64,000 bases of DNA, taken from positions 1,195-65,194 of IMG/VR virus record IMGVR_UViG_3300032224_000782, one strand, 5' to 3'. This stretch comes from a virus. Its lineage: Duplodnaviria; Caudoviricetes. Shown here one piece after another: positions 13,332-57,923 of the stretch (position 1 is its first letter; every line of letters begins with the position of its first letter). Under the pieces are notes generated by a model, which had not been told where the DNA came from, ran no database searches, and saw only the letters and a list, made by a program, of their open reading frames with translations. The translations under genes and the position numbers were made by a program.

Positions 13332-14339
13332 ATGACAACACCAGCAGTATATAAAGGATTAGTTCCTAGTAAAACAAATGGGGGCTTGACTCCCTTGCAA
13401 TTGGCATTGGCCAACGACATGGCCACGGGAAAATTACCTTTTGGCGTTAACATTGATTTTCTTGCCGCCATGCGAATCTATGCACACACCGATCCTTTAG
13501 TTCCAATTGATTTTGTAAATCAAGGCAATAAACAAAAAGAAGTTAACAAGATTTTCTATGTTGGCGGCAAAAACCCATTACCACAAGATGCTGGAATTTC
13601 AGACCGAGAAGCAAGAGCACCTACTGTGGCACGTAACATTGCTGGTGTGATGTATACTGTATTCGGGGATGATATTTTTATACTTAGAGAATCTCCAGAT
13701 TGTGGACCTGACGAAAGTATCTATGAGCAAACATCTGTTGGTAAAAAATCAACAGTGGCGGTGGGATCGTTTGCGTATTATGGAAGAAAAGTAATATTTG
13801 GTGGTCCTGTGTCGTCTGGATCAAATCCTGGATTTGGCGGATGTTGTTTTATTGCAGGTACAAAAATTACCATGGCTGATGGTTCTACAAAAAATATAGA
13901 AGATGTAGAAATCGGAGAACAAGTCATTGGTAAAGATAATGTTATTAACAATGTTGTGAACTTTATAAGACCCGGACTGGGTGACCGTAAACTAGTGGGA
14001 TTTAATAATGGGACAGCATTTATGACCAGCGATCATCCTGTTTATACTCAAGCTGGGTGGAAATCTTATGATCCCATTGCTACCATGGAAAAATATTCAG
14101 TATTTGAAGATTTACCAGTAACACAGCTAATGCCAGGCGATGTTATTGTAACATTAGACGGGCAAGGATTACTTATTGATTCTATACAAACGGAAGATGG
14201 TCCTGCGGAACTAGAAGTTTATAATTTTGAACTTGACGGCAACAACACCTACATAGCCAACAATCTTGTTGTACACAACAAAGGCATGTCAGCCAGTTGT
14301 AGCTCACCAGGTGCAACTGGCTGTAGTGCAGGCGGTTAA
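13332..14339 (+). CDS. baseplate-region protein with Hint (intein-like) domain
   Basis: CFIAGTKITMADG..IEDVEIGE..TSDHP..VYNFELDGNNTYIANNLVVHN at 13845-14279. Confidence 0.85.
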   Translation: MTTPAVYKGLVPSKTNGGLTPLQLALANDMATGKLPFGVNIDFLAAMRIYAHTDPLVPIDFVNQGNKQKEVNKIFYVGGKNPLPQDAGISDREARAPTVARNIAGVMYTVFGDDIFILRESPDCGPDESIYEQTSVGKKSTVAVGSFAYYGRKVIFGGPVSSGSNPGFGGCCFIAGTKITMADGSTKNIEDVEIGEQVIGKDNVINNVVNFIRPGLGDRKLVGFNNGTAFMTSDHPVYTQAGWKSYDPIATMEKYSVFEDLPVTQLMPGDVIVTLDGQGLLIDSIQTEDGPAELEVYNFELDGNNTYIANNLVVHNKGMSASCSSPGATGCSAGG

Positions 14340-18903: not shown

Positions 18904-19148
18904 ACGAACGAATTAAACAACTTGAGAAACAATGCTGGAGCCATCATGTTGATGGTACGCTAGTAGATGGACAGTTACACTTTGATACAAAAAAGTTCGC
19001 CGAGTTGATTGTTCGGGAATGTGTCCAAGTTTGTGAGCCGATACTAGATGAACCTTACGAGGATATGACTGAATTTGGCAAAGGGTTAGTAGAAGGGCAA
19101 GATGTTGCCATCGAAAGAATCAAAGAACATTTCGGAGTTGAACTATGA
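18900..19148 (+). CDS. MNERI-family hypothetical protein
   Basis: KFAELIVREC..IKEHFGVE; paralog at 41879. Confidence 0.7.
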   Translation: MNERIKQLEKQCWSHHVDGTLVDGQLHFDTKKFAELIVRECVQVCEPILDEPYEDMTEFGKGLVEGQDVAIERIKEHFGVEL

Positions 19149-27046: not shown

Positions 27047-27142
27047 ATGTTAATTAATATTGGAACTATACTTGGTGTGGGATTGGTAGTTACCATTGTG
27101 TATCTACTAGTTGAAGACCTTGTACGTCGACATAAAAAATAA
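27047..27142 (+). CDS. 31 aa single-TM peptide
   Basis: MLINIGTILGVGLVVTIVYLLVEDLVRRHKK; AAGGA upstream. Confidence 0.45.
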   Translation: MLINIGTILGVGLVVTIVYLLVEDLVRRHKK

Positions 27143-27143
27143 T

Positions 27144-27178
27144 CTGTAACAAAACTGTAACGGTCTTCTGCGTAAATA
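27144..27178 (+). promoter_or_regulatory. Pho box plus late-promoter motif
   Basis: CTGTAAC-AAAA-CTGTAAC, 11 bp, TAAATA. Confidence 0.75.
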
Positions 27179-27182
27179 CTAT

Positions 27183-28067
27183 ATGCAGAAGACCTATCGC
27201 AGTATCTTCATCAGTGATGTTCATCTTGGCACTAAGGATAGCCAAGCTGAAAAACTCAATAACTTCCTTAAACACAATACTTGCGAAACATTGTATCTTG
27301 TAGGAGATATTATCGATGCTTGGAAAATCAAACAAAACAAATGGCGCTGGAAACAAAGTCACACTAACGTCATTCGCCGTGTGCTGGGTCATAGCAAACG
27401 CGGTACTCGTGTTGTATATGTGGCTGGTAATCACGACGAGTTTCTAAGACCATTCATGCATTATGATATTGGCTTTGGTATGATCGAAGTCACTAATCAA
27501 ATCGAACACATAGGTGCTGACGGCAAACATTATCTTGTGGTGCATGGAGATATGTTTGATGGTATCACCAGACTGGCGCCATGGCTAACAATGTTGGGAG
27601 ATAAAGCCTATGATTTTATACTCAGCCTCAATACTAGAATTAATTGGATTCGTCATCGTATGGGTTTTGGGTACTTTAGCCTTAGCCTGTTTCTTAAGCA
27701 TCGTGTTAAAAAAGCTGTAGATTTTATATTTCATTTTGAACGTAATCTATCCGCATATTGTAAAAAGCGTGGGTTTGATGGTGTTATCTGCGGACACATA
27801 CACCACGCAGAAATCAAAGACATAGACGGTGTAGTATATATGAACGACGGTGACTGGGTTGAGTCGTGTACAGCATTAGTAGAGCATCACGATGGGCATT
27901 GGGAAATCATAACTTGGACACAGGAGAAAGACGATGTGGTTGATGATATTGATAGCGGTACACGTGAACAATCCAAAAGATCAACCCGGAAGAGTGGAAC
28001 TGCTGTTCAACGACCAAAGGACCTGCGAACAAGCATTGTCGACAATGAAGTACGAATTAAAATTTAA
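27183..28067 (+). CDS. plcP: PlcP-type phospholipase C (LpxH-like metallophosphoesterase)
   Basis: FISDVHLG, LVGDIID, GNHDEFLR (His, not the LpxH Arg), HGDMFD, LGDKAYD, VICGHIHHA, GDWVESCTALVEH; adjacent to Agt-like GT. Confidence 0.85.
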   Translation: MQKTYRSIFISDVHLGTKDSQAEKLNNFLKHNTCETLYLVGDIIDAWKIKQNKWRWKQSHTNVIRRVLGHSKRGTRVVYVAGNHDEFLRPFMHYDIGFGMIEVTNQIEHIGADGKHYLVVHGDMFDGITRLAPWLTMLGDKAYDFILSLNTRINWIRHRMGFGYFSLSLFLKHRVKKAVDFIFHFERNLSAYCKKRGFDGVICGHIHHAEIKDIDGVVYMNDGDWVESCTALVEHHDGHWEIITWTQEKDDVVDDIDSGTREQSKRSTRKSGTAVQRPKDLRTSIVDNEVRIKI

Positions 28068-28107
28068 AAGTTTTCGAGTAGAGGGAGTATGTCAAAAACA
28101 ATCCTAA
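27934..28107 (+). CDS. small exported two-Cys protein (57 aa) overlapping the plcP 3' end
   Basis: AGGAG RBS, MWLMILIAVHVNNPKDQPGRVELLFNDQRTCEQAL...VEGVCQKQS; not in the ORF track. Confidence 0.6.
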   Translation: MWLMILIAVHVNNPKDQPGRVELLFNDQRTCEQALSTMKYELKFKSFRVEGVCQKQS

Positions 28108-29093
28108 TCATCACAGATAATTTACCGGATCAAATAAATGGCGTTGTCACAACATATAAAAACATTGAGATTTGTGCGACTCGTGACAATTATAACGTTG
28201 TGGTGCTTCATCCCGGGTGGTTCAGCTACATTGATTGCCCTGGCTACAACGAAGTCAAGATTGCCTATCCCCGGGCGTTGGGCAAGAAGGTTGCGGAGAT
28301 CAATCCGGATCATATCCATATCGCCACAGAGGGTCCTCTTGGTCTGTGGGCTAGAAAGTATCTTTCATTATGTGATTATCGCTATAATACCGCTTATCAT
28401 ACTAAGTTTCCTGAAGGGCTAAACAAACTATTTGGCATACCAGAAGGAATAACATGGAGATTTGTGCGTTGGTTTCATAAACATAGCGGCAAAGTATTGA
28501 CAACTACTGATAGCATGGTATCTGAATTGCAAGCACGTGGATTTGACGGGGAAGTAATTTCATGGACACGTGGTGTTGATCGTGAGATATTTCATCCTAT
28601 GCATAGAGTGGAAACGACTAGCAAATATATTCTATGTGTTAGTCGTGTTAGCAAAGAAAAAAATTTAGAAGCATTTTTTGAATTAAACTACCCGGGATAT
28701 TTAAAAATTATGGTTGGGGATGGTCCCATGCTAGAAACTTATAAAAAGCAATACCCAGATGTTCATTTTACAGGATTTAAAACAGGCATAGAATTGGCAC
28801 AATACTATGCTAATGCTGAAGTGTTTGTATTTCCGTCACAGTGGGAGACCTTTGGTATTGTAATGATTGAGGCTATGGCCTGTGGCACTCCTGTGGCAGC
28901 ATATCCTTGTCAAGGCCCTGAAGATGTAATCGACGAAGGCATAACTGGTTGTCTAAATACAGATTTAAAACAAGCAGTTACTGACTGTTTATTTTTACCT
29001 AGACATCGAGTATGGGAAGGTAGTCAACGTTGGAGTTGGGATAGAGCTTGGGAAATATTTAGAGATAATCTTGTTCCTGTAACACTGCCGTAA
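28089..29093 (+). CDS. agt: GT4 glycosyltransferase, Agt-like diacylglycerol glycosyltransferase
   Basis: QINGVV, HIATEGPLG, YHTKFPE, FVRWFH, EKNLEAF, ETFGIVMIEAMACGTPVAA. Confidence 0.8.
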   Translation: MSKTILIITDNLPDQINGVVTTYKNIEICATRDNYNVVVLHPGWFSYIDCPGYNEVKIAYPRALGKKVAEINPDHIHIATEGPLGLWARKYLSLCDYRYNTAYHTKFPEGLNKLFGIPEGITWRFVRWFHKHSGKVLTTTDSMVSELQARGFDGEVISWTRGVDREIFHPMHRVETTSKYILCVSRVSKEKNLEAFFELNYPGYLKIMVGDGPMLETYKKQYPDVHFTGFKTGIELAQYYANAEVFVFPSQWETFGIVMIEAMACGTPVAAYPCQGPEDVIDEGITGCLNTDLKQAVTDCLFLPRHRVWEGSQRWSWDRAWEIFRDNLVPVTLP

Positions 29094-29111
29094 CACTTTT
29101 ATATCTAAATA
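29077..29111 (+). promoter_or_regulatory. Pho box plus late-promoter motif
   Basis: CTGTAAC-ACTG-CCGTAAC, 11 bp, TAAATA. Confidence 0.65.
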
Positions 29112-29159
29112 CTTATGTACCACAGTGGTACACACATTCAAACCCAAAAGGAGCATTTC

Positions 29160-29807
29160 ATGAGATTAGAAGACCTAGCCGCAAGATTAGTAGCTGTTGA
29201 AGCCAAGTTAGCAACACTAACTGGAACCGCAGTTAACACAGACAATGCCACAAGCATTGAAGAATTAGATGCAAGACTATCAGTAGTCGAAGTTCAAGTT
29301 GATCAATTGATTGTTGAAAAAACTCAAAGCCACATCGACGCTATCGTTTATTCACCAGCTGACGAAGCACCAGTAGCAGTTGAAGATGTAGTTTCACTAT
29401 CACCAAGCTCCGACATCCCCGAAGCTGCCGCAATCGTTACGGATGTAGTAGCTGACCAACACGAATCAGATGCAATCGGTAATCCTGAAGTTGCTGATAT
29501 GGTTACAGCCGCTGTTGTCGCAGTTGTTACAGCAGAGCCACAAACTGTATTAGATCCAGTAGCATTGACAGCCGCTATTGTAGAAGCAGTTGCTGATATG
29601 CCAACTCCTGCACCTGAAGCTGTAGAACAAGTTGTTGCCGCAGTCGCTGATGTTATCGCTACAGCAACAGGTGTCGATGTAGTTACTCCTGAAGTACAAC
29701 AACAAATTGCAGAAGCGGTTGCTATGCCTGCTGACCCACGTTTAGATGTTATTGAACAACGTTTAGATATTGCAGAAGCAAAGGTTGACAGCCTATTGGG
29801 AAAGTAA
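29160..29807 (+). CDS. acidic Ala/Val-rich protein with coiled-coil repeats
   Basis: AAGGAG RBS; L..RL..VE..(L/V) repeated three times; almost no aromatic residues. Confidence 0.7.
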   Translation: MRLEDLAARLVAVEAKLATLTGTAVNTDNATSIEELDARLSVVEVQVDQLIVEKTQSHIDAIVYSPADEAPVAVEDVVSLSPSSDIPEAAAIVTDVVADQHESDAIGNPEVADMVTAAVVAVVTAEPQTVLDPVALTAAIVEAVADMPTPAPEAVEQVVAAVADVIATATGVDVVTPEVQQQIAEAVAMPADPRLDVIEQRLDIAEAKVDSLLGK

Positions 29808-29850
29808 TATTTGTCTTTCAAAAATGGTTTAGAAAGTTTATCTGATCCAA

Positions 29851-29870
29851 AAAAGCCCTTCGGGGCTTTT
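29851..29870 (+). terminator. intrinsic terminator
   Basis: AAAAGCCC-TTCG-GGGCTTTT. Confidence 0.85.
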
Positions 29871-29874
29871 CTAT

Positions 29875-29909
29875 ATGTAATATTACTGTAACAGAATTGC
29901 AATTAAATA
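29875..29909 (+). promoter_or_regulatory. Pho box plus late-promoter motif
   Basis: ATGTAAT-ATTA-CTGTAAC, 11 bp, TAAATA; upstream of pstS. Confidence 0.7.
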
Positions 29910-29931
29910 ATTTTATATTCAAGGAGATAAT

Positions 29932-30951
29932 ATGATCAAGAAAATTTTCACATTAATGGCAGCGTCATTATTCTTAATGTCAGTAGATTCAAAAGCAGAA
30001 ACAATCACAGGAGCAGGTGCAACCTTTCCTTTTCCCATTTACAGCAAGTGGAGTGAAGCATATAAAGAAAAAACCAATATAGAATTAAACTACCAAAGTA
30101 TCGGTAGTTCGGGTGGTGTAAAACAAATTAAATCAAGTACTGTGGATTTTGGTGCAACTGATGCTCCACTAAAAGGCGAAGAACTAACTGCAAATGGTCT
30201 GATACAGTTTCCTACAGTATTAGGCGGAGTTGTTCCAGTAATCAATGTAGAGGGTATAAAGCCCGGTGAGTTACAATTAACTGGTGAAGTATTGGCTAAG
30301 ATTTTTGTTGGTCACATTGTTATGTGGAATGACAAGCGTATTCAGGAACTAAATCCTAAATTAAAATTACCTGACGCTAACATCACCATTGTTCATCGTG
30401 CAGATGGATCTGGTACAACATTTATTTTCACAGACTATCTGACAGAAGTCAGTGCCGTTTGGAAAGAAGAAGTTGGTAAAGGTGCCGCAGTAAAATGGCC
30501 TGCTACCAGCAGTGTGGGCGGTAAAGGCAACGAAGGTGTTGCTGCCAATGTGAGCCGTGTAAAAAATTCAATTGGTTATGTAGAATATGCGTATGCCAAA
30601 AAGAACAAAATGACTTATATTAAGATGCAAAATCGTGATGGTAAATATGTAGAACCAGACGATGAAACATTCGCAGCGGCTGCTAAAGGAGCCGATTGGT
30701 TTTCAACCCCAGGTATGGGGATCAGTCTAGTAAATCAAAAGGGCGCACAGAGTTGGCCCATCACAGGTGCAACATTTATATTGATGTACCGTGAGCCAAA
30801 GAATGCAAAAACTAGCCAAGAAGTAATTAAGTTTTTTGATTGGGCATTTGTAAACGGTGGTAAAATGGCTGCGGATTTGGACTATGTTCCATTACCAAAG
30901 TCAGTGACTGATCGTATCCGTAGTGATGTTTGGTCTACTATTAAAAAGTAA
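29932..30951 (+). CDS. pstS: phosphate ABC transporter substrate-binding protein
   Basis: Signal peptide, GAGATFP, YQSIGSSGG, DFGATD, RADGSGTT, GKGNEGV, IGYVEYAY. Confidence 0.97.
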   Translation: MIKKIFTLMAASLFLMSVDSKAETITGAGATFPFPIYSKWSEAYKEKTNIELNYQSIGSSGGVKQIKSSTVDFGATDAPLKGEELTANGLIQFPTVLGGVVPVINVEGIKPGELQLTGEVLAKIFVGHIVMWNDKRIQELNPKLKLPDANITIVHRADGSGTTFIFTDYLTEVSAVWKEEVGKGAAVKWPATSSVGGKGNEGVAANVSRVKNSIGYVEYAYAKKNKMTYIKMQNRDGKYVEPDDETFAAAAKGADWFSTPGMGISLVNQKGAQSWPITGATFILMYREPKNAKTSQEVIKFFDWAFVNGGKMAADLDYVPLPKSVTDRIRSDVWSTIKK

Positions 30952-31018
30952 CCGAATCACTTGAAGTGAGTAAGTAAAGAGTTTATAATAGAAAAATCAT
31001 TTTTATAAAGGAAAAAAT

Positions 31019-32170
31019 ATGAAATTTACTAAAATTGTCCTAGCTACATTGTTAACTGCTGGCATTACTGCTGGTGTAGCACAAGCGCAGGACGCACCTC
31101 GCAATACAGAATTGTATGGCGTAATTGGAGTTGGCGCAGTAAGCGGCAGTGGTTTTGGTTCTAGCAACCAAGACTTTGCAGGTGTAGGTGAACAACTGCA
31201 CAACAGCAATCGCTTTGGCATCAAAGGTTCACAGGATCTTGGAGATGGTTTCAAAGCTAGTTTCCAACTAGAAGGTAACTTCAGTGCTCGCACTGGCGCT
31301 GCTGGTAAAGACTCTGGTGGTACAGGTTCAGCAGGAACAACATTGTTTGACCGTGAAGCCAATGTAGCATTGAGCAACAAAGATTATGGTCAAGTTCAAT
31401 TGGGTCGTGGCAAGAACTTCTTGTACAATGTACTTGATGAATTTGACTCACGCGGTAACTGGAACTTTGGCGGTGCTAAATCAGTAGCTCGATACGCCGG
31501 TTTCTATTCAGGTTCAGGTGTTAGCAGATTTGACAACATGATTCGTTATACATCACCTAGCTTTGGTGGTTTAAAGTTTGATTACGCATACGCCGCTGGT
31601 AATCAATTAGGAGACACTAGTTACAAATCTAGCTACAATGCAGGTGTTCGTTATACTGCTGGTCCATTGGACTTGGCATACACACACGAAGAAGCACGTT
31701 TGAGCACTACAGTGGTCAGCGAAGAAATTGACTTAGTTGCCGCAAAATATGCAGTAACTCCTGCGTTGACTTTAAATGCTGGTTATGCGATTACTCGTAA
31801 CCCAACTACACAGACTACTTTCTACAGTAGCTCAAGCAAAGCAGATGGTAAAACAGATGCTGATACTTGGTTCGTTGGTGCAAAGTACAAAGTATCCGAC
31901 CGTGTTAGTTTGAACGGTGGCTACTACAGTGTTACAGACAAAATCACTGCTGGTAAAGACAATGTGCAAATGACTGCTGTTGGTGCTACCTATGCATTTG
32001 ACAAGCGTACAGAAATCTTCATTGATTACGTAAGAGCTGATCGTGCTAGCGGTGCAGTGAGCCCATTTACAATCTATGATCGTTGGGTTCCTAATGGTGA
32101 CGGATCAACATATTCAGACAGCAAGTATGCTCAACATGCTGTTGCGGTAGGTATGCAATTCCGCTTTTAA
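31019..32170 (+). CDS. trimeric Gram-negative porin (betaproteobacterial type)
   Basis: Signal peptide, LYG, SNRFGIKGSQDLGDG.KA.FQLE, FDREANV, RFDN.IRY, C-terminal Phe. Confidence 0.92.
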   Translation: MKFTKIVLATLLTAGITAGVAQAQDAPRNTELYGVIGVGAVSGSGFGSSNQDFAGVGEQLHNSNRFGIKGSQDLGDGFKASFQLEGNFSARTGAAGKDSGGTGSAGTTLFDREANVALSNKDYGQVQLGRGKNFLYNVLDEFDSRGNWNFGGAKSVARYAGFYSGSGVSRFDNMIRYTSPSFGGLKFDYAYAAGNQLGDTSYKSSYNAGVRYTAGPLDLAYTHEEARLSTTVVSEEIDLVAAKYAVTPALTLNAGYAITRNPTTQTTFYSSSSKADGKTDADTWFVGAKYKVSDRVSLNGGYYSVTDKITAGKDNVQMTAVGATYAFDKRTEIFIDYVRADRASGAVSPFTIYDRWVPNGDGSTYSDSKYAQHAVAVGMQFRF

Positions 32171-32182
32171 TAGTTAAATCGA

Positions 32183-32219
32183 CCACAACGATTGAGTGGC
32201 GCTGGAACTCGTAACCAGC
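32183..32219 (+). ncRNA. candidate two-hairpin RNA element in the porin 3' UTR
   Basis: CCAC-aacgattga-GTGG and GCTGG-aactcgtaa-CCAGC; loops carry complementary ACGA/TCGT. Confidence 0.35.
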
Positions 32220-32242
32220 AAAGGACCTTAGGGTCCTTTTTT
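32220..32242. terminator. bidirectional intrinsic terminator
   Basis: AAAGGACC-TTAG-GGTCCTTTTTT between convergent genes. Confidence 0.85.
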
Positions 32243-33455
32243 ATTGACTTAATAATCTTTGAACTTGATCAAAGTCAATTTGATTAGTATCAATGGGATA
32301 TACAGGATCGCTTGAGTTCCATTCTAAGACGATGTCTTTAAAATTCGTCACTAACTCGTCAACAATTATATTTTTAAATTTGCTGTAAAAATGATTAAAG
32401 TTAAATTCTAATATATCTTGCATTTCTTTATACATTTCGGCAAGCTCTGTATCTTTTAATTTACATAGTTTTTCTAGTTCAGCGACCACTAATTCGATTC
32501 TACGATCCGGATCCAATTCATCATCATAACTTTCATCGATCCACTGATCAAAAGTTTTAAAGCCGTAGCTTTTTAAATATGCCAGATTATGAACAGCACC
32601 CAATAACATAAAAGGACGTTTGGCTGTAATAGGTTTGAATATTTTTTCTGTTAAGTGCAATTTGTCATAGTAAAACACTGTTTCGGTAACCACATGCCAC
32701 AGTGCAGACTTATGCATCATTAATTCAGCATAACCAGAATCTGCGCTGGCTGTTCCTGGGGGATTGTCTTTGTCTATGGTTAGAGAATTTTCCAAAGTTC
32801 CAATTTGATCCTGTATTAGCAGTTTTGCTGGTTCAGATAATAAAGTATCAGGATCTGCTAGTTCTTGTTGCCAAGAGCCCAGTCCATTATCTTTTAATAT
32901 CAAACTAACATAACCATGTTCCAATAGATTGTGCTTCATCAATTGGGACACAAAATATAATCTATAACTTCGGCTTTTAGTGACTAGGCGATTGTAGGAT
33001 ATAAATACTCTTGTAAATTGATTTTCTATTTGTGGAGTATACTGATAGTCCCTGTACCAATCTAGAGCAGCAAATCCATGGAAAAAGTAATACCAGTTTT
33101 TATAGTTGGTTTCCTTGCACCATGTATTAATATCATTAGATATTTCCCCCACTGCTACTATCCTGCTAAACGTATTTGATTTAGCGTTGTTTGTGACAGG
33201 CACATACCCAGTTATATATTGACCCGTACATTTATTGGCTACTTTAATATCGAATGGTTCTTGATCATAGTAAAAACAGTAATGTTGATCTTTGTGCAAC
33301 TCAGTATAGTCTGGAGTATAAAGATGGTCATGCATACCAAACATTAACTGTGTCACATCAGTACTACCGAACGGATAGAAATAACAATCGTATATACTTG
33401 CAGGTTTAAGTAAATTTGCGTATAATATAAAATAAAACTTTTCTAAGGAAAACAT
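32241..33455 (-). CDS. putative glycosyltransferase-like protein (family A)
   Basis: VVTET..LTEKIFKPI..RPF..GFKTF..IDESYD. Confidence 0.55.
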   Translation of the reverse strand: MFSLEKFYFILYANLLKPASIYDCYFYPFGSTDVTQLMFGMHDHLYTPDYTELHKDQHYCFYYDQEPFDIKVANKCTGQYITGYVPVTNNAKSNTFSRIVAVGEISNDINTWCKETNYKNWYYFFHGFAALDWYRDYQYTPQIENQFTRVFISYNRLVTKSRSYRLYFVSQLMKHNLLEHGYVSLILKDNGLGSWQQELADPDTLLSEPAKLLIQDQIGTLENSLTIDKDNPPGTASADSGYAELMMHKSALWHVVTETVFYYDKLHLTEKIFKPITAKRPFMLLGAVHNLAYLKSYGFKTFDQWIDESYDDELDPDRRIELVVAELEKLCKLKDTELAEMYKEMQDILEFNFNHFYSKFKNIIVDELVTNFKDIVLEWNSSDPVYPIDTNQIDFDQVQRLLSQ

Positions 33456-34697
33456 ATGAAAAAAATTGGATTTATTGGTATCGGTAAACTAGGCCTAGAC
33501 TGTGCCGAAGTAATGGCAGAAAAACATGAAGTCAGAGGCTATGATATTTACCCACGCACTAGCGACACGGTAAAGGTTTGTGGTATTGAAGAATTAGTTA
33601 ATGAAAGTGAATGGATTTTTATTGCTGTTCCTACACCACACGCAGAAGGTTATGATGGTAGTGTTCCTAGCAGTCACATGGAACCCAAAGACTTTGGTCA
33701 CGATGCTGTTATTGATGCACTTAACAAAGTTAATCAATACGCAACTACAAGCAAGAAGGTTGTGTTGATCAGTACAGTATTACCAGGCACAACACGTCGC
33801 AAGTTTATTACACTACTAGACCCAAAACATCAATTCTTGTACAACCCTTACTTGATTGCCATGGGATCAGTTAAATGGGACATGGCCAATCCTGAGATGG
33901 TTATCATTGGTACTGAAGATGGTAGCTTAACAGGCGTTGCAGGCGAATTGATTGACTTGTACAAAACAATGATGCAAAACGATCCACGTTACGAAGTTGG
34001 CACATGGGACGAATGTGAAGCCATTAAAATCTTCTACAACACCTACATCAGTGCTAAAGTTGGTATTGTTAACATGATTCAAGACTTTGCAATGAAGATT
34101 GGTAACATTAATGTTGACGTTGTTACTAATGCATTGGCACGTAGTACTATGCGACTACAAGGACCCAAGTACATGACAGCTGGTATGGGTGATGCAGGTG
34201 CTTGCCATCCACGTGACAACATTGCACTGCGTTGGTTAGCAGAACACTATGACATCGGCTATGATTTGTTTGACACTATCATGCATGCTAGAGAAGTACA
34301 AGCAAAAAATCTAGCATTGTTCTTAGTTGAACAAAGTCGTACACATGGTGGACTGCCTATTATCATTCATGGTAAAGCATACAAACCTGATGTTGAATAC
34401 TGTATTGGTAGCTACAGTACACTGGTTGGCCACTATGTTAAAGAAGCAGGACACAAAGTCAGCTATGTTGATCCATTGGCAGACAGTCAAGACGAAGTTA
34501 TTTCAGAAGTAACTACGCCAGCAATTTTCCTTTGGGCACACAATCGTAAAATTACTTACGAATATACCGGCGAACAATTAGACACAAAACCTTATTGTAA
34601 TATTATGCCAGGCAGCATTATTGTTGATCCATGGCGTAAACTACAATCTGAAAATGGTGTTGAAGTTGTTCACTATGGCAACACAAGACATCAATAA
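33456..34697 (+). CDS. UDP-glucose/GDP-mannose 6-dehydrogenase family
   Basis: GIGKLG, AVPTP, STVLPGT, AIKIFYN, GACHPRD, AYKP. Confidence 0.9.
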   Translation: MKKIGFIGIGKLGLDCAEVMAEKHEVRGYDIYPRTSDTVKVCGIEELVNESEWIFIAVPTPHAEGYDGSVPSSHMEPKDFGHDAVIDALNKVNQYATTSKKVVLISTVLPGTTRRKFITLLDPKHQFLYNPYLIAMGSVKWDMANPEMVIIGTEDGSLTGVAGELIDLYKTMMQNDPRYEVGTWDECEAIKIFYNTYISAKVGIVNMIQDFAMKIGNINVDVVTNALARSTMRLQGPKYMTAGMGDAGACHPRDNIALRWLAEHYDIGYDLFDTIMHAREVQAKNLALFLVEQSRTHGGLPIIIHGKAYKPDVEYCIGSYSTLVGHYVKEAGHKVSYVDPLADSQDEVISEVTTPAIFLWAHNRKITYEYTGEQLDTKPYCNIMPGSIIVDPWRKLQSENGVEVVHYGNTRHQ

Positions 34698-52853: not shown

Positions 52854-53669
52854 ATGAAACAAATTTTAGCGGCATTATCTCTATTCTTATCAGTTAACGT
52901 ATTTGCCTGGGACCAACGTGCTCCTGCTCCTATAGATGCATGTAAAGCACATAGCCCATATGGATGGGCACAAACACAAAGACAAGCACAACCTATTTGC
53001 CGTGAAGCGTATCTAGTAGCATATGACGCACCTGTAAAAATTCCTGTGTATGTAGCATACACATTACTACCACAGAATGCGTTAGGATGCTGGCCCCGAA
53101 CAAACGCCTTTGTTGCAGATCAAAGCGTTAAAGGTGGTGCAAGACCAGAAGATTATGCTGGCACTGGCTACGACAAAGGACACGCAGCTCCAGACGGTGA
53201 CTTGAGTTGGAGCCAACAAGTAGAATATGAATCATTTTTAATGACAAATATGTATCCCCAACATGGAAGTTTGAATAGGGGTATTTGGAAATTGTTAGAA
53301 ACAAGTGTACGTGGATGGGCAGTTCAGCTTAATCAACCGTTCACTATATACGTTGGTGCATTATATGGACAAGGTGACGAATACATTGCTAATGGCATTA
53401 TTGTTCCTCATGGATACTATAAAATCGTAATTAACAATGCTACTGGACAAGTAGCAGGTTGGGTGTTTCCGCATACCAAACCTTATCAAAACTTAGGCAA
53501 CGATTTAACTAAATTCCGTGTTGCTATAGCACAGATTCAACAACAAGCAGGAGTAAAATATGCTTTTCCAGCGAATGCCCGCGAACTGCCACCAGGACAA
53601 GAATGGCCCGTAGACTTTGGTGCACTGACCAATGCCAAACGTGCTAAATGTAAAGGTGCAGTAGACTAA
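52854..53669 (+). CDS. secreted DNA/RNA non-specific endonuclease (NucA/EndA family)
   Basis: Signal peptide, YDKGHAAP, ESFLMTNMYPQ..LNRGIWK.LE. Confidence 0.92.
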   Translation: MKQILAALSLFLSVNVFAWDQRAPAPIDACKAHSPYGWAQTQRQAQPICREAYLVAYDAPVKIPVYVAYTLLPQNALGCWPRTNAFVADQSVKGGARPEDYAGTGYDKGHAAPDGDLSWSQQVEYESFLMTNMYPQHGSLNRGIWKLLETSVRGWAVQLNQPFTIYVGALYGQGDEYIANGIIVPHGYYKIVINNATGQVAGWVFPHTKPYQNLGNDLTKFRVAIAQIQQQAGVKYAFPANARELPPGQEWPVDFGALTNAKRAKCKGAVD

Positions 53670-53722: not shown

Positions 53723-53741
53723 ATTGTCACATAAATATAAA

Positions 53742-55928
53742 ATGCGCTTTAAACAAATAAAAAAACTTATTGCTGAAGATGAGTTGATGGAAATCAACAT
53801 GAGTCCCAGCAGTCTAAAAAAGTTAGCCAGTCAAATTGATGCTCTTGCTGGCATGGAATTTGAAATGGTTGTGCCTAATCTCAGTGGTGTTGATGACAGC
53901 GATCAAGAACCCGACTATGACTATGATGAACGTTGCCGTAGCATTGAAGATGCTGTGCAATTCTTTTACGATGGTGATTGGAACGGTCGTAGAGATGTTG
54001 AACGTCTACGTGAAAAAATGCAGAATGATTTCAGCGAATGGCTGGATGACAAAATCTATCAAGAATGGGAACGCCACGGCGAAGAGTACTTAGAAGAATG
54101 GGTGCCCAACAATGTGGACGAATCTGAGTGGAATCCTGAAGGTTTGGAAGGCGAAGAACGTCAGGAAGCACTAGAAGAATTCATTGCCAACCTGCATAGC
54201 AACCCCGGCAGCAGTGATGCGTTTGATGAGTACAGAGAAGAAAATCAAGAGTCATATGACGAAAGCGACTGGTTGGATGATGAAGACCTAGACCGCATGA
54301 GCAGCATTGAAAACACATACTCAATGACTTGGCCACATTGGCGTAATGTTGGTAATGGCGAAGCTAGCATTGAAGATGTTGCTAACAGTTTTAGAGACGC
54401 AGTGGGCCGCCCAATACTAGCCAGCACCAGTTATCACAGCAGCCGAGTTGAACGCCCCAGCACCAAAAACTTAGAATACATTGTGGAACCTGACAGCAGT
54501 ATTAATGTCGACGACGAAAGCAATGAAGGCGGATTAGAGTTTGTATCACCACCGTTGCCTATTGCAGATATGATGAGTGATCTTGACAAGGTTAAAAAAT
54601 GGGCCGACCGTAATGGTTGTTATACCAACGACTCAACGGGCCTACACATTAATGTCAGTGTCCCTGGTTTTGATATTAACAAACTCGACTATGTTAAACT
54701 AGCATTGTTGTTAGGCGATAATCACATATTAGAAGTATTTGGTAGAACTGGCAATACTTATTGCAAGAGTGCTATAGAAAAAGTCAAAAGCCGTGTTAAA
54801 CAAAATCCCGACACCGCAGAACATTTATTGAATCAAATGCGTAATCATATGGATCAATTAGCCACTAAAGCTATTCATTCAGGTGTAACAGACAAATATA
54901 CAAGTATCAATACTAAAACTGGACACATTGAATTTAGAAGTCCTGGTGGCGATTGGTTAAAAAAATTAGACGAAGGCGACGAAATTCAACAAACACTATT
55001 GCGTTTTGTTGTGGCTATGGATGCTGCAATGAAACCTGAGTTATATCGTGAAGAATACTTAAAGAAACTTTACAAACTATTAGATGTTACAAGTAATCAA
55101 GACCCATTATGGTATTTTGTAAAATATTCGGCAGGCGGATTTTCGCCAACGGTTCTAAAGAGTTTTATTCGTCAGACACAATTAGAACGTGATGTTAAAC
55201 GTGGCAAAGAAAAAGAAAAATCACAAGATGATTTGACGCCTTTTGAAATTTACAATAGAGACTCTAACGCAGTTGTGTCAACGGTCTTGGCTCGCAATGC
55301 TCAAGAAGCGTTGGCAGAATTGGATCAATTCCGGGCGGAGCAAGTTAGAGCACAAGGCATAACAGTGGATCAGGCCACCGCAACGTACGGTATACGTCAT
55401 GCTCCTATTCCTGGAAGCACTATAGACCTACAGCGTCAGCGAGCAGCCGCCGCATCAAACACAGAACCACACCCCGAAGGTCGTGGTCGTCCCAACGATC
55501 CCACAGGACGCTATGCTATTGTAATGCGTAACGACGAGGCAGTGCATGGTCGTAGCGGGCAAGCACCCAACTATCAGTTTAGATTTAACATGTCAAATCT
55601 GGAACAACAAGGACATGGACGCTATGTGCTACAGGCTTGGGCTGCAAGAAACAATGTGGATCCTGCCAATTATATGATTGTTGATACTACTCAATATGCT
55701 GATGCCAATCAAATCCCCACCGTTGACATTGACATTGAACCAGCACCACAACAACCAGGCATGGGAGAGTTCAACGGACAATGGCGAGTTGTTGATGGCT
55801 TAGGTAGAGAAGTATATCGGTTCGGCGGTGTAGGCAATAGTCAAGCAGATGCCAACAGAATAGCCGCAACATGGGCAAGGACCACCGGCTTCGACGGTAA
55901 CATCGAGGTTTACCCTGTGATGGCGTAA
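53742..55928 (+). CDS. putative amidoligase (COOH-NH2 ligase type 2) with C-terminal extension
   Basis: GMEFE, EPDSS, LEFVSPP, STGLHINVS, KYTSIN, IEFR. Confidence 0.8.
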   Translation: MRFKQIKKLIAEDELMEINMSPSSLKKLASQIDALAGMEFEMVVPNLSGVDDSDQEPDYDYDERCRSIEDAVQFFYDGDWNGRRDVERLREKMQNDFSEWLDDKIYQEWERHGEEYLEEWVPNNVDESEWNPEGLEGEERQEALEEFIANLHSNPGSSDAFDEYREENQESYDESDWLDDEDLDRMSSIENTYSMTWPHWRNVGNGEASIEDVANSFRDAVGRPILASTSYHSSRVERPSTKNLEYIVEPDSSINVDDESNEGGLEFVSPPLPIADMMSDLDKVKKWADRNGCYTNDSTGLHINVSVPGFDINKLDYVKLALLLGDNHILEVFGRTGNTYCKSAIEKVKSRVKQNPDTAEHLLNQMRNHMDQLATKAIHSGVTDKYTSINTKTGHIEFRSPGGDWLKKLDEGDEIQQTLLRFVVAMDAAMKPELYREEYLKKLYKLLDVTSNQDPLWYFVKYSAGGFSPTVLKSFIRQTQLERDVKRGKEKEKSQDDLTPFEIYNRDSNAVVSTVLARNAQEALAELDQFRAEQVRAQGITVDQATATYGIRHAPIPGSTIDLQRQRAAAASNTEPHPEGRGRPNDPTGRYAIVMRNDEAVHGRSGQAPNYQFRFNMSNLEQQGHGRYVLQAWAARNNVDPANYMIVDTTQYADANQIPTVDIDIEPAPQQPGMGEFNGQWRVVDGLGREVYRFGGVGNSQADANRIAATWARTTGFDGNIEVYPVMA

Positions 55929-55943
55929 TGGATAAGTAATATT

Positions 55944-57923
55944 ATGAAATTATTTGAATTTGATCCCCCTTTAGACGAAGCGCCAATGAATCCCAAGGCC
56001 TTTGCACAAGCAATGGAAGCAGGCCAAGACAAAGGTGTACTAGTGGGATTTGAATTCGAAGTTGGTATACCACACGAAGTTTTTGCCAGCGCAAGCTCAC
56101 AGGAACAAGAAAAAACCCCCAATAGAATACAAGATATAGTAAACGAATCTGATGTATTGGAGAATTTAAGTTTTAGGGAATGTTCGGTTACTGATTGGGA
56201 TGAAACATTTAAATTCAAAGTTGATCCACCTACTGGATTCAAATCAATGACTGAAGCGTATGCGGCATTTCGAGATCATCAACTCACTAAATCAAGGGAA
56301 TTATTTAATGCAATCCCAGAAAAACTTCGAGCAAAATATCGTGATGAGATGGTAAACGATGCCAAGGCGTGGGCAAAAAGTCATTATAGTCATCTTGACA
56401 AAAACGACCCCGCACGTCGAGATGAGATGCAACTGCATTTTGCTCAAATGTTAGGCTATAGAGTTTATTTGGTGTCAGGCGCCGCATCTAAAGCTGAAGC
56501 AGCCGGAATGGCACTAAGACAGGCAGGAACTCTAGACTGGGCCGAATTATTAAAATTTGTCTACAATGTGGATCGAGCCTTTGAGGTAGAGCGCAACTTC
56601 AATAATTATTTTACATATGATGTTGATCAAGCATGGGACACATTAAAATTAGACGATATCGAAGATGATGACGACTATTATGATGATGAAGACGGTGACT
56701 ACGAATCTGCGGCTAATGCACTACAACCTATTGTAGCTCAGACTATGGGTGCCAAAGTAAACGTGTTTCACAATTATCACCAAAGCGCAAAAAATTTAAC
56801 AGACTGGTACATAGAACCCGATGGTAGTTTAGAAGCTGATGGAGATGAAGATGCTACAGCAGAGATTGTTAGTCCTCCACTACCAGCCGCACAAGCTGTT
56901 GACGCACTGAAACGTTTCTATGCCATGGCTGGTCAACTGAACTTGTATACCAACGAATCCACTGGCTTACATATCAATGTCAGCATCCCCGACAAGTTAG
57001 ACGTATTAAAACTAGCAGTGTTTTTAGGTGACCAGCACGTACTCAAACAGTTTGGTAGACAAGACAATGATTATGCACGTAGTTCTGAAAAGACTATTGC
57101 AAGTCAGACTGCACGTGATTCCAACGTTATCGATGTTAAAACTAAAAAGAAACCTGGCGTATTGGGTCAGCCAAAAACACAGTCTAAGATAAACGTAAAA
57201 GCACTACAACAAATAGCGCAGGATGCAACCAGTAGCCACACTGCAAGTATCAGCAACAACGGCAAGTATATTAGTTTCCGTCATGCAGGTGGCAATTATC
57301 TACAAGACTATAACAGCATTTTCAATGTTGTGGGACGTTTTATTCGTGCAATGATCATTGCCGCAGATCCTAATGCGTATGCACAAGAGTATCAAACTAA
57401 GTTAGCAAAACTAGCAGGTACTAGTCAAACTTCAGCCAGTCAAGAAACTCCTGCACTGATTAATTATATACGTACAAATGGTCTTCCTGTTATTAAAGTA
57501 GATCTACTGCGATTCAATAATACCAGAAGTGCAATAAATCTTGCCAAAGATAGTGTACAACACTACATCAATACTTCATCCTTAAACAACCAAAACGTCA
57601 TAGCCCAACCCGGTGGTGAAGCAGTCAAACAGGCCATTTCTACTCGGATGCAAAACCCCAAACGTAAGGAGCAAGTTGAAAAAGCACCTGTTGGTAACTT
57701 CTTCTCATTGACTATCGTCCCTTCCAATGCCCAGGCAATGAAACATTATTTGGGATTAAATCTTAATACTGGGGTAAAACTTATTGACAATCACAACGGT
57801 TACCAGGACACTGGGTATGCTGTATACTCCAAAGCAGTACTACCTATTACTGACCCCATATCCAAAACCTTCCTAAAAACCGCGCTGACCCAGCACTACG
57901 GTAAAAAACTTAAGAAAAAATGA
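55944..57923 (+). CDS. putative amidoligase, tandem paralog
   Basis: GFEFE, EPDGSL, EIVSPP, STGLHINVS, ISFRHAGG. Confidence 0.78.
   Translation: MKLFEFDPPLDEAPMNPKAFAQAMEAGQDKGVLVGFEFEVGIPHEVFASASSQEQEKTPNRIQDIVNESDVLENLSFRECSVTDWDETFKFKVDPPTGFKSMTEAYAAFRDHQLTKSRELFNAIPEKLRAKYRDEMVNDAKAWAKSHYSHLDKNDPARRDEMQLHFAQMLGYRVYLVSGAASKAEAAGMALRQAGTLDWAELLKFVYNVDRAFEVERNFNNYFTYDVDQAWDTLKLDDIEDDDDYYDDEDGDYESAANALQPIVAQTMGAKVNVFHNYHQSAKNLTDWYIEPDGSLEADGDEDATAEIVSPPLPAAQAVDALKRFYAMAGQLNLYTNESTGLHINVSIPDKLDVLKLAVFLGDQHVLKQFGRQDNDYARSSEKTIASQTARDSNVIDVKTKKKPGVLGQPKTQSKINVKALQQIAQDATSSHTASISNNGKYISFRHAGGNYLQDYNSIFNVVGRFIRAMIIAADPNAYAQEYQTKLAKLAGTSQTSASQETPALINYIRTNGLPVIKVDLLRFNNTRSAINLAKDSVQHYINTSSLNNQNVIAQPGGEAVKQAISTRMQNPKRKEQVEKAPVGNFFSLTIVPSNAQAMKHYLGLNLNTGVKLIDNHNGYQDTGYAVYSKAVLPITDPISKTFLKTALTQHYGKKLKKK

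Follow-up and report, generated by a model that had tools for sequence, protein, structure and literature searches.

A predicted lipid-remodelling and phosphate-uptake cassette in a fragment of a T4-like freshwater phage

Why should a virus carry a gene for the dismantling of phospholipids together with genes for phosphate uptake? The question is raised by five plus-strand genes located at positions 27144-32242 of the window, i.e. the whole stretch of 64,000 nucleotides (nt) of viral DNA analysed here, taken from a 65 kb IMG/VR record with a CheckV completeness estimate of 19%. Pfam, NCBIfam and PHROG scans assign to these genes a PlcP-like metallophosphoesterase, a family 4 glycosyltransferase (GT4) related to Agt and GTcp, the phosphate-binding protein PstS and a porin; the remaining product is rich in alanine and valine. 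In the reading that we favour, with moderate confidence, the locus is a phosphate-stress auxiliary cassette of a T4-like freshwater phage of ~360 kb, in which lipid remodelling and phosphate uptake would be placed under PhoB control.

The first-pass annotation, made from the letters alone, had recognized the first two genes by short motifs. All of these (GNHD, LGDKAYD and GDWVESCTA in the esterase; HIATEGPLG, YHTKFPE and FVRWFH in the glycosyltransferase) are found in the translations of genes lying where it had placed them. The location of pstS, and then of a porin gene, downstream of the lipid gene pair holds as well (NF008171, 428 bits; Porin_4, 137 bits). PstS passes two equivalog models, NF008171 (cut-off 339 bits) and TIGR00975 (379 bits, cut-off 205). 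The features of the region are as follows.

27144-27161 (+): Pho-box-like direct repeat CTGTAAC-AAAA-CTGTAAC, exact match, ending 21 nt upstream of the plcP ATG
27183-28067 (+): plcP-like metallophosphoesterase gene, 294 amino acids (aa); Pfam Metallophos, 45 bits
28089-29093 (+): Agt/GTcp-like GT4 gene, 334 aa, Glu253 variant; Glycos_transf_1, 88 bits, and Glyco_transf_4, 43 bits
29077-29094 (+): weaker Pho-box-like site CTGTAAC-ACTG-CCGTAAC, one mismatch, overlapping the GT4 stop codon and upstream of the next open reading frame (ORF)
29115-29807 (+): Ala/Val-rich acidic ORF, 230 aa, no family match; optional cassette
29851-29870 (+): hairpin AAAAGCCC-TTCG-GGGCTTTT, likely terminator, found by eye and absent from the consensus-scan list
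29875-29903 (+): Pho-box-like site upstream of pstS, with half-sites ATGTAAT, CTGTAAC and TTGCAAT at 11-nt spacing
29932-30951 (+): pstS, high-affinity binding protein for phosphate in the periplasm, signal-like N-terminus; NF008171, 428 bits
31019-32170 (+): outer-membrane porin gene, 383 aa, signal-like N-terminus; Porin_4, 137 bits
32220-32239 (+): terminator-like hairpin, eight pairs followed by a T run, closing the pstS-porin unit and the region

The cassette could be divided into two units. The first would comprise the Pho-box-like site at 27144, plcP, the agt-like GT4 gene and, optionally, the Ala/Val-rich ORF; the second would comprise the Pho-box-like site upstream of pstS, pstS itself, the porin gene and the terminator. 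The esterase would act as an Mn- or metal-dependent phospholipase C of the LpxH fold, cutting the phosphorylated head group off host glycerophospholipids to leave diacylglycerol. Diacylglycerol could then accept a sugar from a uridine diphosphate (UDP) sugar in a reaction catalyzed by the GT4 enzyme, which would yield a phosphorus-free glycolipid. PstS and the porin would supply an additional periplasmic phosphate binder and an additional outer-membrane channel. Host PhoB, acting at both repeats, would switch the cassette on in phosphate-starved cells alone. The net effect, and the presumed benefit to the phage, would be that membrane phosphorus is freed and uptake is raised during the synthesis of a large genome, the membrane being kept intact by the sugar lipid.

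Gene order, distribution and purpose of the cassette

The GT4 gene of the window starts 21 nt downstream of plcP. In bacterial and archaeal assemblies a GT4 homologue lies directly downstream of the esterase gene in 19 of the 34 testable loci; 18 of these enzymes are less than 60% identical to the window protein (mostly 36-41%), the exception (L083, ~70%) being encoded on a short contig of a metagenome-assembled genome (MAG) that belongs to the viral clade. The gene order of the window is that of the 'type 2' plcP-agt neighbourhood described for SAR11 HTCC7211 and Erythrobacter sp. NAP1 (Sebastian et al. 2016, PMC4796936). The type 2 Agt homologue was shown there to make both glucosyl- and glucuronosyl-diacylglycerol.

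The viral neighbourhoods were counted in 80 loci fetched, with their flanks, by means of plcP, which is by this choice their constant element; 72 of them were testable for the GT4 gene. A GT4 gene directly follows plcP in 30 of the 72 (22 of the window type, 8 at less than 60% identity). As for the plcP-agt-pstS synteny that the first-pass annotation suggested to survey, pstS is present within the flanks of just 17 of the 80 loci. Among the complete relatives discussed below, G002 has the plcP-GT4 pair and lacks pstS.

Contigs of related strains point to modular exchange. Joints from 29069 to 29875 or 29876, observed in three runs, skip the Ala/Val-rich ORF; a joint from 29069 to 32176 skips this ORF together with pstS and the porin gene; and a joint from 32220 to 27182 leads from the porin terminator directly into plcP. 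The units are thus shuffled as cassettes, the breakpoints falling at boxes and terminators. The Ala/Val-rich ORF has no family in Pfam, NCBIfam, PHROG or PADLOC, its look-alikes in the Atlas are virus-only hypothetical clusters, and relatives of it occur in 6 of the 80 viral loci.

Some further observations concern the left edge of the region. A hydrophobic mini-ORF of 31 codons (27048-27143, +) lies immediately upstream of the first Pho-box-like site, and the contigs of two runs omit exactly 27048-27144, joining onto the box. The summed contig depth at 27200-28400 is several-fold above that of the flanks in all four runs, contig depth not being a quantitative measure; this rise, which covers plcP and the first part of the GT4 gene, fits many co-occurring strains that share plcP. 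A defence role, prompted by a match of 35 residues to Pfam 'GT4-conflict' (25.1 bits, cut-off 26), was considered and dropped: PADLOC defence families gave no match for the five proteins tested.

The same two enzymes could remodel the envelope for other ends, namely to block superinfection, to prepare lysis or to build a replication compartment. A pelagimyophage study proposes that phage glycosyltransferases change the cell surface against co-infection (PMC7029224), and phage attachment is reported to be affected by lipid composition (PMC9938194, PMC9804370). The occurrence of plcP without pstS in 63 of the 80 loci would also agree with such a purpose. Against it, the promoter motif of plcP recurs solely at pstS, a gene dedicated to phosphate scavenging, in the 64 kb as well as in one complete relative of 360 kb, Pelagibacter phage Mosig also pairs plcP with pstS, and the five proteins are without a PADLOC match. 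An envelope function separate from phosphorus supply is therefore regarded as improbable, and a phosphate-stress cassette remains the preferred reading.

Pho-box-like repeats upstream of plcP and pstS

The Pho box of proteobacteria consists of two 7-nt direct repeats separated by a 4-nt spacer. The pattern CTGTAAC-N4-CTGTAAC is matched exactly at 27144-27161, with one mismatch at 29077-29094, with two at 29875-29892 and with three at the overlapping 29886-29903; sites with at most two mismatches are confined in the window to 27144, 29077 and 29875. When three mismatches are allowed, 13 sites are observed against 6.7 expected, and 13 was reached in none of 100 shuffles. The three Pho-box-like repeats reported in the first-pass annotation are thus real and non-random. 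The stricter specificity belongs to two of them: the core TGT[AC]A[CT]-N5-TGT[AC]A[CT] has two matches on both strands of the 64 kb (27145 and 29876), one at plcP and one at pstS. The site at 29077-29094 fails this looser core pattern, and its role is uncertain.

The same association is seen in the relatives. Both strands of the 80 viral loci (2.05 Mb) contain 52 core matches; in 37 of the 80 loci the core precedes plcP by 36-53 nt, and in 9 of the 17 loci with pstS it precedes that gene by no more than 150 nt (at least 9 of the 52 matches). The sole two core matches in the 360 kb of G001 are located upstream of pstS and upstream of plcP, both matches of G003 are at plcP and pstS, and in G002 one is upstream of plcP and the other is inside a gene on the opposite strand. 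Five of the six matches in these three genomes are consequently at plcP or pstS; a reversed-pattern control gave 1, 1 and 3 matches in G001, G002 and G003, respectively. The spacing of the box is conserved among relatives, where the core most often begins 38 nt ahead of the ATG; this points to a plcP messenger RNA with almost no leader.

The form of the repeat, its confinement to plcP and pstS and the Pho boxes of bacterial plcP clusters, reported in PMC4796936, are the grounds for regarding the repeats as putative host PhoB sites that would make up a two-promoter 'phage Pho regulon'. By analogy this is the best candidate, although TGTAAC-N5-TGTAAC could instead serve as operator for a regulator encoded by the phage or for a different one of the host, in which case the cassette would be timed by the infection programme. 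Such an operator would agree with the position of the box, unusually close to the plcP ATG, and with the 43 of 80 plcP loci that have no core motif upstream. It would not account for the two 7-nt repeats with a 4-nt spacer, typical of proteobacterial Pho boxes, or for the restriction of the motif to one gene for a phosphate binder and one for an enzyme predicted to release phosphate, and the published Pho boxes at bacterial plcP clusters likewise speak for PhoB. We therefore consider another regulator unlikely and retain PhoB as the putative one.

The two predicted lipid enzymes

The esterase is labelled LpxH by the Joint Genome Institute (JGI) and in the records of Pelagibacter phage Mosig and Synechococcus phage S-SRM01, and viral 'lpxH' is tallied among the auxiliary genes of lipopolysaccharide (LPS) synthesis in virome surveys (PMC10653327, PMC9611531). 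On this assignment the protein would be a UDP-2,3-diacylglucosamine hydrolase serving the synthesis of lipid A and LPS. The label has a structural basis, since the calcineurin-like fold, a helical lid as an insertion and the residues that bind the metal are common to LpxH and the esterase. The AlphaFold model of the esterase (mean pLDDT, the predicted local distance difference test score, 75.9) has a phosphoesterase core with two long inserted helices, and its top 25 matches in the PDB (Foldseek, E-values 5.5e-11 to 4.7e-9) are all LpxH, which is thus the closest solved fold. A sequence search of solved structures led from the esterase to LpxH alone, with weak E-values, and to no PlcP or Agt structure.

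The family models and the tree separate the two proteins. The esterase scores 44.3 bits on NF003743 (cut-off 134) and 36.7 bits on TIGR01854 (cut-off 190), missing both LpxH equivalog cut-offs by ~90-150 bits, while the E. coli K-12 LpxH control reaches 364 and 389 bits. The genomes of the Parasalinivibrio and Aquimonas loci carry a homologue of the esterase plus a second, weakly similar paralogue; these second paralogues and E. coli LpxH score 276-389 bits, whereas the window esterase, its counterparts in Mosig, S-SRM01 and G001 and four bacterial homologues score 28-60. In a quick IQ-TREE analysis of 81 rows (midpoint-rooted, viral rows thinned from 80 to 40 at ~88% identity), LpxH is split off with 100% support in the Shimodaira-Hasegawa-like approximate likelihood ratio test (SH-aLRT). 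Viral esterases form one group (92%), to which two short MAG contigs are basal (99%), and the whole lies inside a 99% clade with Hyphomonadaceae, Robiginitomaculaceae, Parvularcula and Mosig.

The remaining properties agree with this placement. The esterase is 50-59% identical to alphaproteobacterial homologues, including those of a Kordiimonas locus and of Sphingomonadales loci, and the bacterial homologues that group with it sit directly upstream of Agt-type GT4 genes; identity to solved LpxH is 17-23%. The alignment shows no variation in the metal ligands D12, H14, D42, N83, H121, H205 and H207, whereas the helical insertion (residues 125-195) does not align with the LpxH lid. Residues 248-294 (window 27924-28064) form a basic tail predicted to be disordered, which is conserved in the viral proteins and found in none of the bacterial ones. 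Of 401 genomes sampled from the class to which G006 belongs (a Phenylobacterium, Alphaproteobacteria), 144 have homologues at E-values up to 1e-20, a tally that takes in G250, flagged as unpublished. For comparison, the criterion for PlcP given in PMC4796936 is a BLASTP E-value below 1e-40 to the MED193 protein.

A separate clade, a different lid sequence, scores far apart and a conserved partner that is a lipid GT4 gene and no lpx gene make an LpxH function very unlikely. The phylogeny against LpxH called for in the first-pass annotation thus placed the esterase outside LpxH. Membership of a PlcP-like paralogue group distinct from LpxH is supported, and the esterase is predicted from its sequence to be a phospholipase C acting on phospholipid head groups.

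The GT4 enzyme is compared here with GTcp of HTCC7211, an enzyme of 334 aa for which the original study (10.1101/2021.03.25.437072) gives the catalytic pair His104-Asp256, the donor-pocket residues Arg190 and Lys195, the diacylglycerol pocket Thr162, Arg163 and Trp320, and the clade motifs GRVAxEKN and FPSxTDTFG. The window protein has the same length. It carries His104 in YHTKFPE, Thr160-Arg161, SRVSKEKN with Arg186 and Lys191, and FPSQWETFG with Glu253; several tryptophans occupy residues 315-321, one of which may correspond to Trp320. Bacterial GT4 enzymes adjacent to plcP have GRVAxEKN and FPSxTDTFG, so that in the window protein Trp-Glu replaces Thr-Asp at the catalytic position. Identity to these bacterial enzymes is 36-41%; within the GTcp clade, of which a Kordiimonas enzyme is a named member, it is reported in the same text to be 46-58%, and less than 25% to other GT4 enzymes.

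An exhaustive search of representative clusters returned 623 that match the GT4 protein at E-values up to 1e-30. The nearest cluster beyond the window's own is 52% identical and carries FPSRTDTFG. Of the 150 nearest clusters, 135 retain His104; the UDP-sugar motif most frequently reads GRVSKEKN among them, and the Trp-Glu pair is limited to the window's own clusters. No NCBIfam glycosyltransferase family exceeds 59 bits for this protein, and a sequence search of solved structures led to generic GT4 enzymes through the C-terminal motif region alone. In a midpoint-rooted FastTree tree the viral GT4 proteins form one clade (100%), within which an Asp-type sub-clade of nine rows is nested among the Trp-Glu types. 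The two forms are thus exchangeable at one genomic position, an argument for activity of the Glu form.

From its motifs and position, the GT4 protein is regarded as the closest viral relative of the Agt/GTcp clade and as a predicted diacylglycerol glycosyltransferase. Its identification as Agt in the first-pass annotation stands in so far as the clade motifs, His104 and the plcP-agt order are concerned; the catalytic position, with Glu253 in place of Asp, does not conform. More than 90% of activity is lost in the D256E mutant of GTcp (10.1101/2021.03.25.437072), and the protein is for this reason filed as an Agt-related variant instead of a strict clade member.

A UDP-glucose dehydrogenase next to the region had been proposed as a source of UDP-glucuronate for lipid synthesis. 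The two genes that follow the region are these.

32241-33455 (-): orf404, predicted glycosyltransferase of the GT-B fold, from a structure model
33456-34697 (+): nucleotide-sugar dehydrogenase gene; PHROG 9148 'UDP-glucose dehydrogenase', 292 bits

The dehydrogenase scores 128 bits on TIGR03026, below the cut-off of 190, and is present in the fetched plcP flanks of 5 of the 80 viral loci. Its divergent neighbour, orf404, has ~3,800 metagenomic homologues and no family name. The model of orf404 (mean pLDDT 88.8) matches best the T4 beta-glucosyltransferase (Z 11.2, root-mean-square deviation 4.5 over 273 residues), next the T4 alpha-glucosyltransferase (Z 10.0) and then many other GT-B enzymes, Foldseek alone giving weak matches; orf404 thus models as a GT-B glycosyltransferase nearest to the DNA-modifying glucosyltransferases of T4. 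Since such an enzyme is encoded next door, the dehydrogenase may feed orf404 or another sugar pathway rather than the Agt-like enzyme. A supply of UDP-glucuronate for lipid synthesis is possible but unsupported.

The carrier phage and the meaning of its cassette

The window is a fragment of a phage from a lineage of T4-like freshwater jumbo phages of ~360 kb. An esterase 74-88% identical to that of the window is encoded on at least 598 IMG/VR contigs (back-translated scan of IMG/VR), among them the relatives G001 (359,563 bp) and G002 (367,104 bp), both rated 100% complete. Each of these two has a Gp23 T4-type major capsid gene (~331 bits) and a large terminase gene, and numerous genes are common to it and the window (65-85% identity at the nucleotide level); plcP lies deep within G001 and ~4-5 kb from one end of G002. 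Logan contigs from freshwater and lake metagenomes of other samples and studies bridge the junctions from the upstream phage genes to plcP and from the GT4 gene to pstS. None of the sequencing runs listed as containing the sequence is an RNA run. The complete capsid-bearing relatives, the IMG/VR matches and the bridging contigs establish the viral origin of the DNA, and the host chimera against which the first-pass annotation had warned is not what is seen.

That the island is host DNA misassembled onto phage DNA, or that the contig is cellular, is hardly credible: bacterial relatives do exist for all four identified genes, and close copies lie on three short MAG contigs, but the gene is well inside G001, its junctions are bridged in independent runs, the best match on long bacterial contigs is just 59% identical, the guanine-plus-cytosine content is even throughout 27144-32242, and the three MAG contigs measure 2.7-5.6 kb and fall within the viral clade or at its base. 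These contigs (L082, L083 and L092) had been binned into Gammaproteobacteria, Bacteroidia and Competibacteraceae MAGs, and L083 bears the viral Trp-Glu GT4 gene; they are probably phage contigs that were mis-binned.

The host is probably a Gram-negative member of the Pseudomonadota, as suggested by a PstS of the proteobacterial type, a distantly Burkholderiales-like porin and the signal-like N-termini of both proteins (judged by eye). PstS is 54-57% identical to its homologues in Ralstonia, Azospirillum and E. coli and ~36% to that of cyanophages. In a plasmid and chromid search the identity of the porin to those of Burkholderiales does not exceed 31%, too weak a match to name a host, and its Atlas label is 'Pseudomonadota', nothing finer. 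No transfer RNA genes are present in the 64 kb window.

Elsewhere the window encodes a ribonucleotide reductase, a product matching an ultraviolet (UV)-endonuclease-like PHROG, a radical-SAM protein and amidoligases. An element of ~30-55 nt at about 18981-19035 has many copies in G001 at 86-100% identity, near 269.1-269.5, 293.3-293.6 and 344.6-344.9 kb, and further copies lie in G002, G004 and G005; a dispersed repeat with a regulatory role, or a mobile one, is a possible explanation. The ORF at 13332-14339 (+) has a Hint/intein-like domain (Hom_end_hint, 43.5 bits), which suggests an intein or homing element. A DNA/RNA non-specific endonuclease (52854-53669, +; 131 bits) could recycle the phosphorus of host nucleic acids; two large amidoligase-domain proteins are encoded downstream of it (53724-57923, +).

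Several facts weigh against the reading of the locus as a phosphate-stress cassette. With regard to the enzymes, the families were assigned from published motifs and from bacterial homologues that are unnamed or uncharacterised, and Glu253 stands where GTcp has Asp256, the residue whose change to Glu was so costly there; at this position most of the 150 nearest clusters have Asp, and Glu is found in 8. With regard to gene content, no GT4 gene is located downstream of plcP in 42 of the 72 testable viral loci, pstS is restricted to the 17 of 80 already mentioned, the porin gene occurs in 2 of the 80 (adjoining pstS), and G001 has plcP with a distant pstS and no GT4 gene. Since the GT4 gene is optional, membrane refilling cannot be the obligatory half of the scheme, and the lipid swap of the first-pass annotation was given up as a fixed pair. 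Among five large fragments selected by capsid gene, plcP was found in one, the 86% complete one, the sizes of the fragments limiting any inference on core status. With regard to regulation, besides the 43 loci without the motif, a mere 21 nt separate the box from the plcP ATG, so that there is hardly room for a leader, and no Shine-Dalgarno sequence is visible; the Pho-box assignment was made by likeness to the E. coli consensus, which may not be that of the host.

The system resembles two known ones, the bacterial PlcP-Agt pathway and the pstS strategy of cyanophages. With the PlcP-Agt operon of Sinorhizobium, Agrobacterium and SAR11 HTCC7211 it shares an esterase gene followed ~20-100 nt downstream by a GT4 gene, the non-LpxH paralogue group, the GT4 clade motifs and a Pho-box-like site upstream. 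It differs in its carrier, a lytic-type T4-like jumbo phage, in the viral-only basic C-terminal tail of the esterase, in Trp-Glu for Thr-Asp in the GT4 enzyme, in the frequent absence of the GT4 gene from relatives and in the linkage to pstS and a porin gene. As for the cyanophages, their pstS and phoA were reportedly found by Zeng and Chisholm (2012) to be under host PhoBR control. A phage-borne pstS, a host-type starvation promoter element and the logic of boosting phosphorus supply would be common to both, whereas the window has a proteobacterial type of PstS, a repeat of proteobacterial style and, in addition, the predicted lipid enzymes and the porin.

An independent case, in a cultured phage, is Pelagibacter phage Mosig EXVC030M, a T4-like phage (Kyanoviridae). 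Its product Mosig_00120, annotated 'putative UDP-2,3-diacylglucosamine hydrolase', is 48% identical to the window esterase over 81%, belongs to the PlcP-like group and is encoded adjacent to pstS. Unlike the window phage, Mosig infects marine SAR11, and in its 141 kb no GT4 gene follows plcP, and pstS is divergent. The intergenic region contains TTTAACA-AAAA-CTTAACA and further TTAAC repeats (L130, 3841-3992), not CTGTAAC, and these may be a phosphate-stress site of the SAR11 type.

The esterase gene is unmentioned in the announcement paper of Mosig and in the paper on S-SRM01, and the pelagimyophage survey treats glycosyltransferases as LPS modifiers alone (PMC7029224). Full-text literature searches, one of them confounded by the papain-like cysteine protease, gave no description of a phage-encoded plcP, in line with the earlier remark that the lipid pair was not known to have been characterised in a phage. 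The plcP neighbourhoods and phylogeny of PMC4796936 are given in its Supplementary Table S2 and Figures S2 and S3, and viral-like metagenome sequences may already be among them. What is new is the phage carrier, the motif common to a lipid enzyme gene and pstS, the virus-specific variant of the GT4 catalytic site and the porin.

A broader claim could be built on these data: that a widespread lineage of ~360 kb freshwater T4-like phages and, independently, a SAR11 myophage carry a PhoB-controlled 'phage Pho regulon', in which a phospholipase C is constant, a Glu-variant Agt is optional, and host phospholipids pay for phage DNA during phosphate starvation. The arguments for and against this claim seem to us evenly balanced.

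To our knowledge, the known phosphate-stress genes of phages serve uptake (pstS) or the use of dissolved organic phosphorus (phoA). A phage PlcP, if the reading is true, would open an internal source, the host membrane, whose lipid would thereby become a store of phosphorus for the virus. Infection would then be tied to the shifts from phospholipid to glycolipid that serve in the field to mark phosphorus stress. The viral genes counted as 'lpxH' in virome surveys would turn out to be lipid-remodelling genes; existing data sets would be affected, since the gene is common and is now annotated and counted as a gene of LPS synthesis. The Trp-Glu variant of the GT4 enzyme is a natural experiment on a residue deemed essential by mutagenesis, and the distribution of the repeat over two promoters means that the borrowing of a host nutrient regulon by a phage can here be tested directly.

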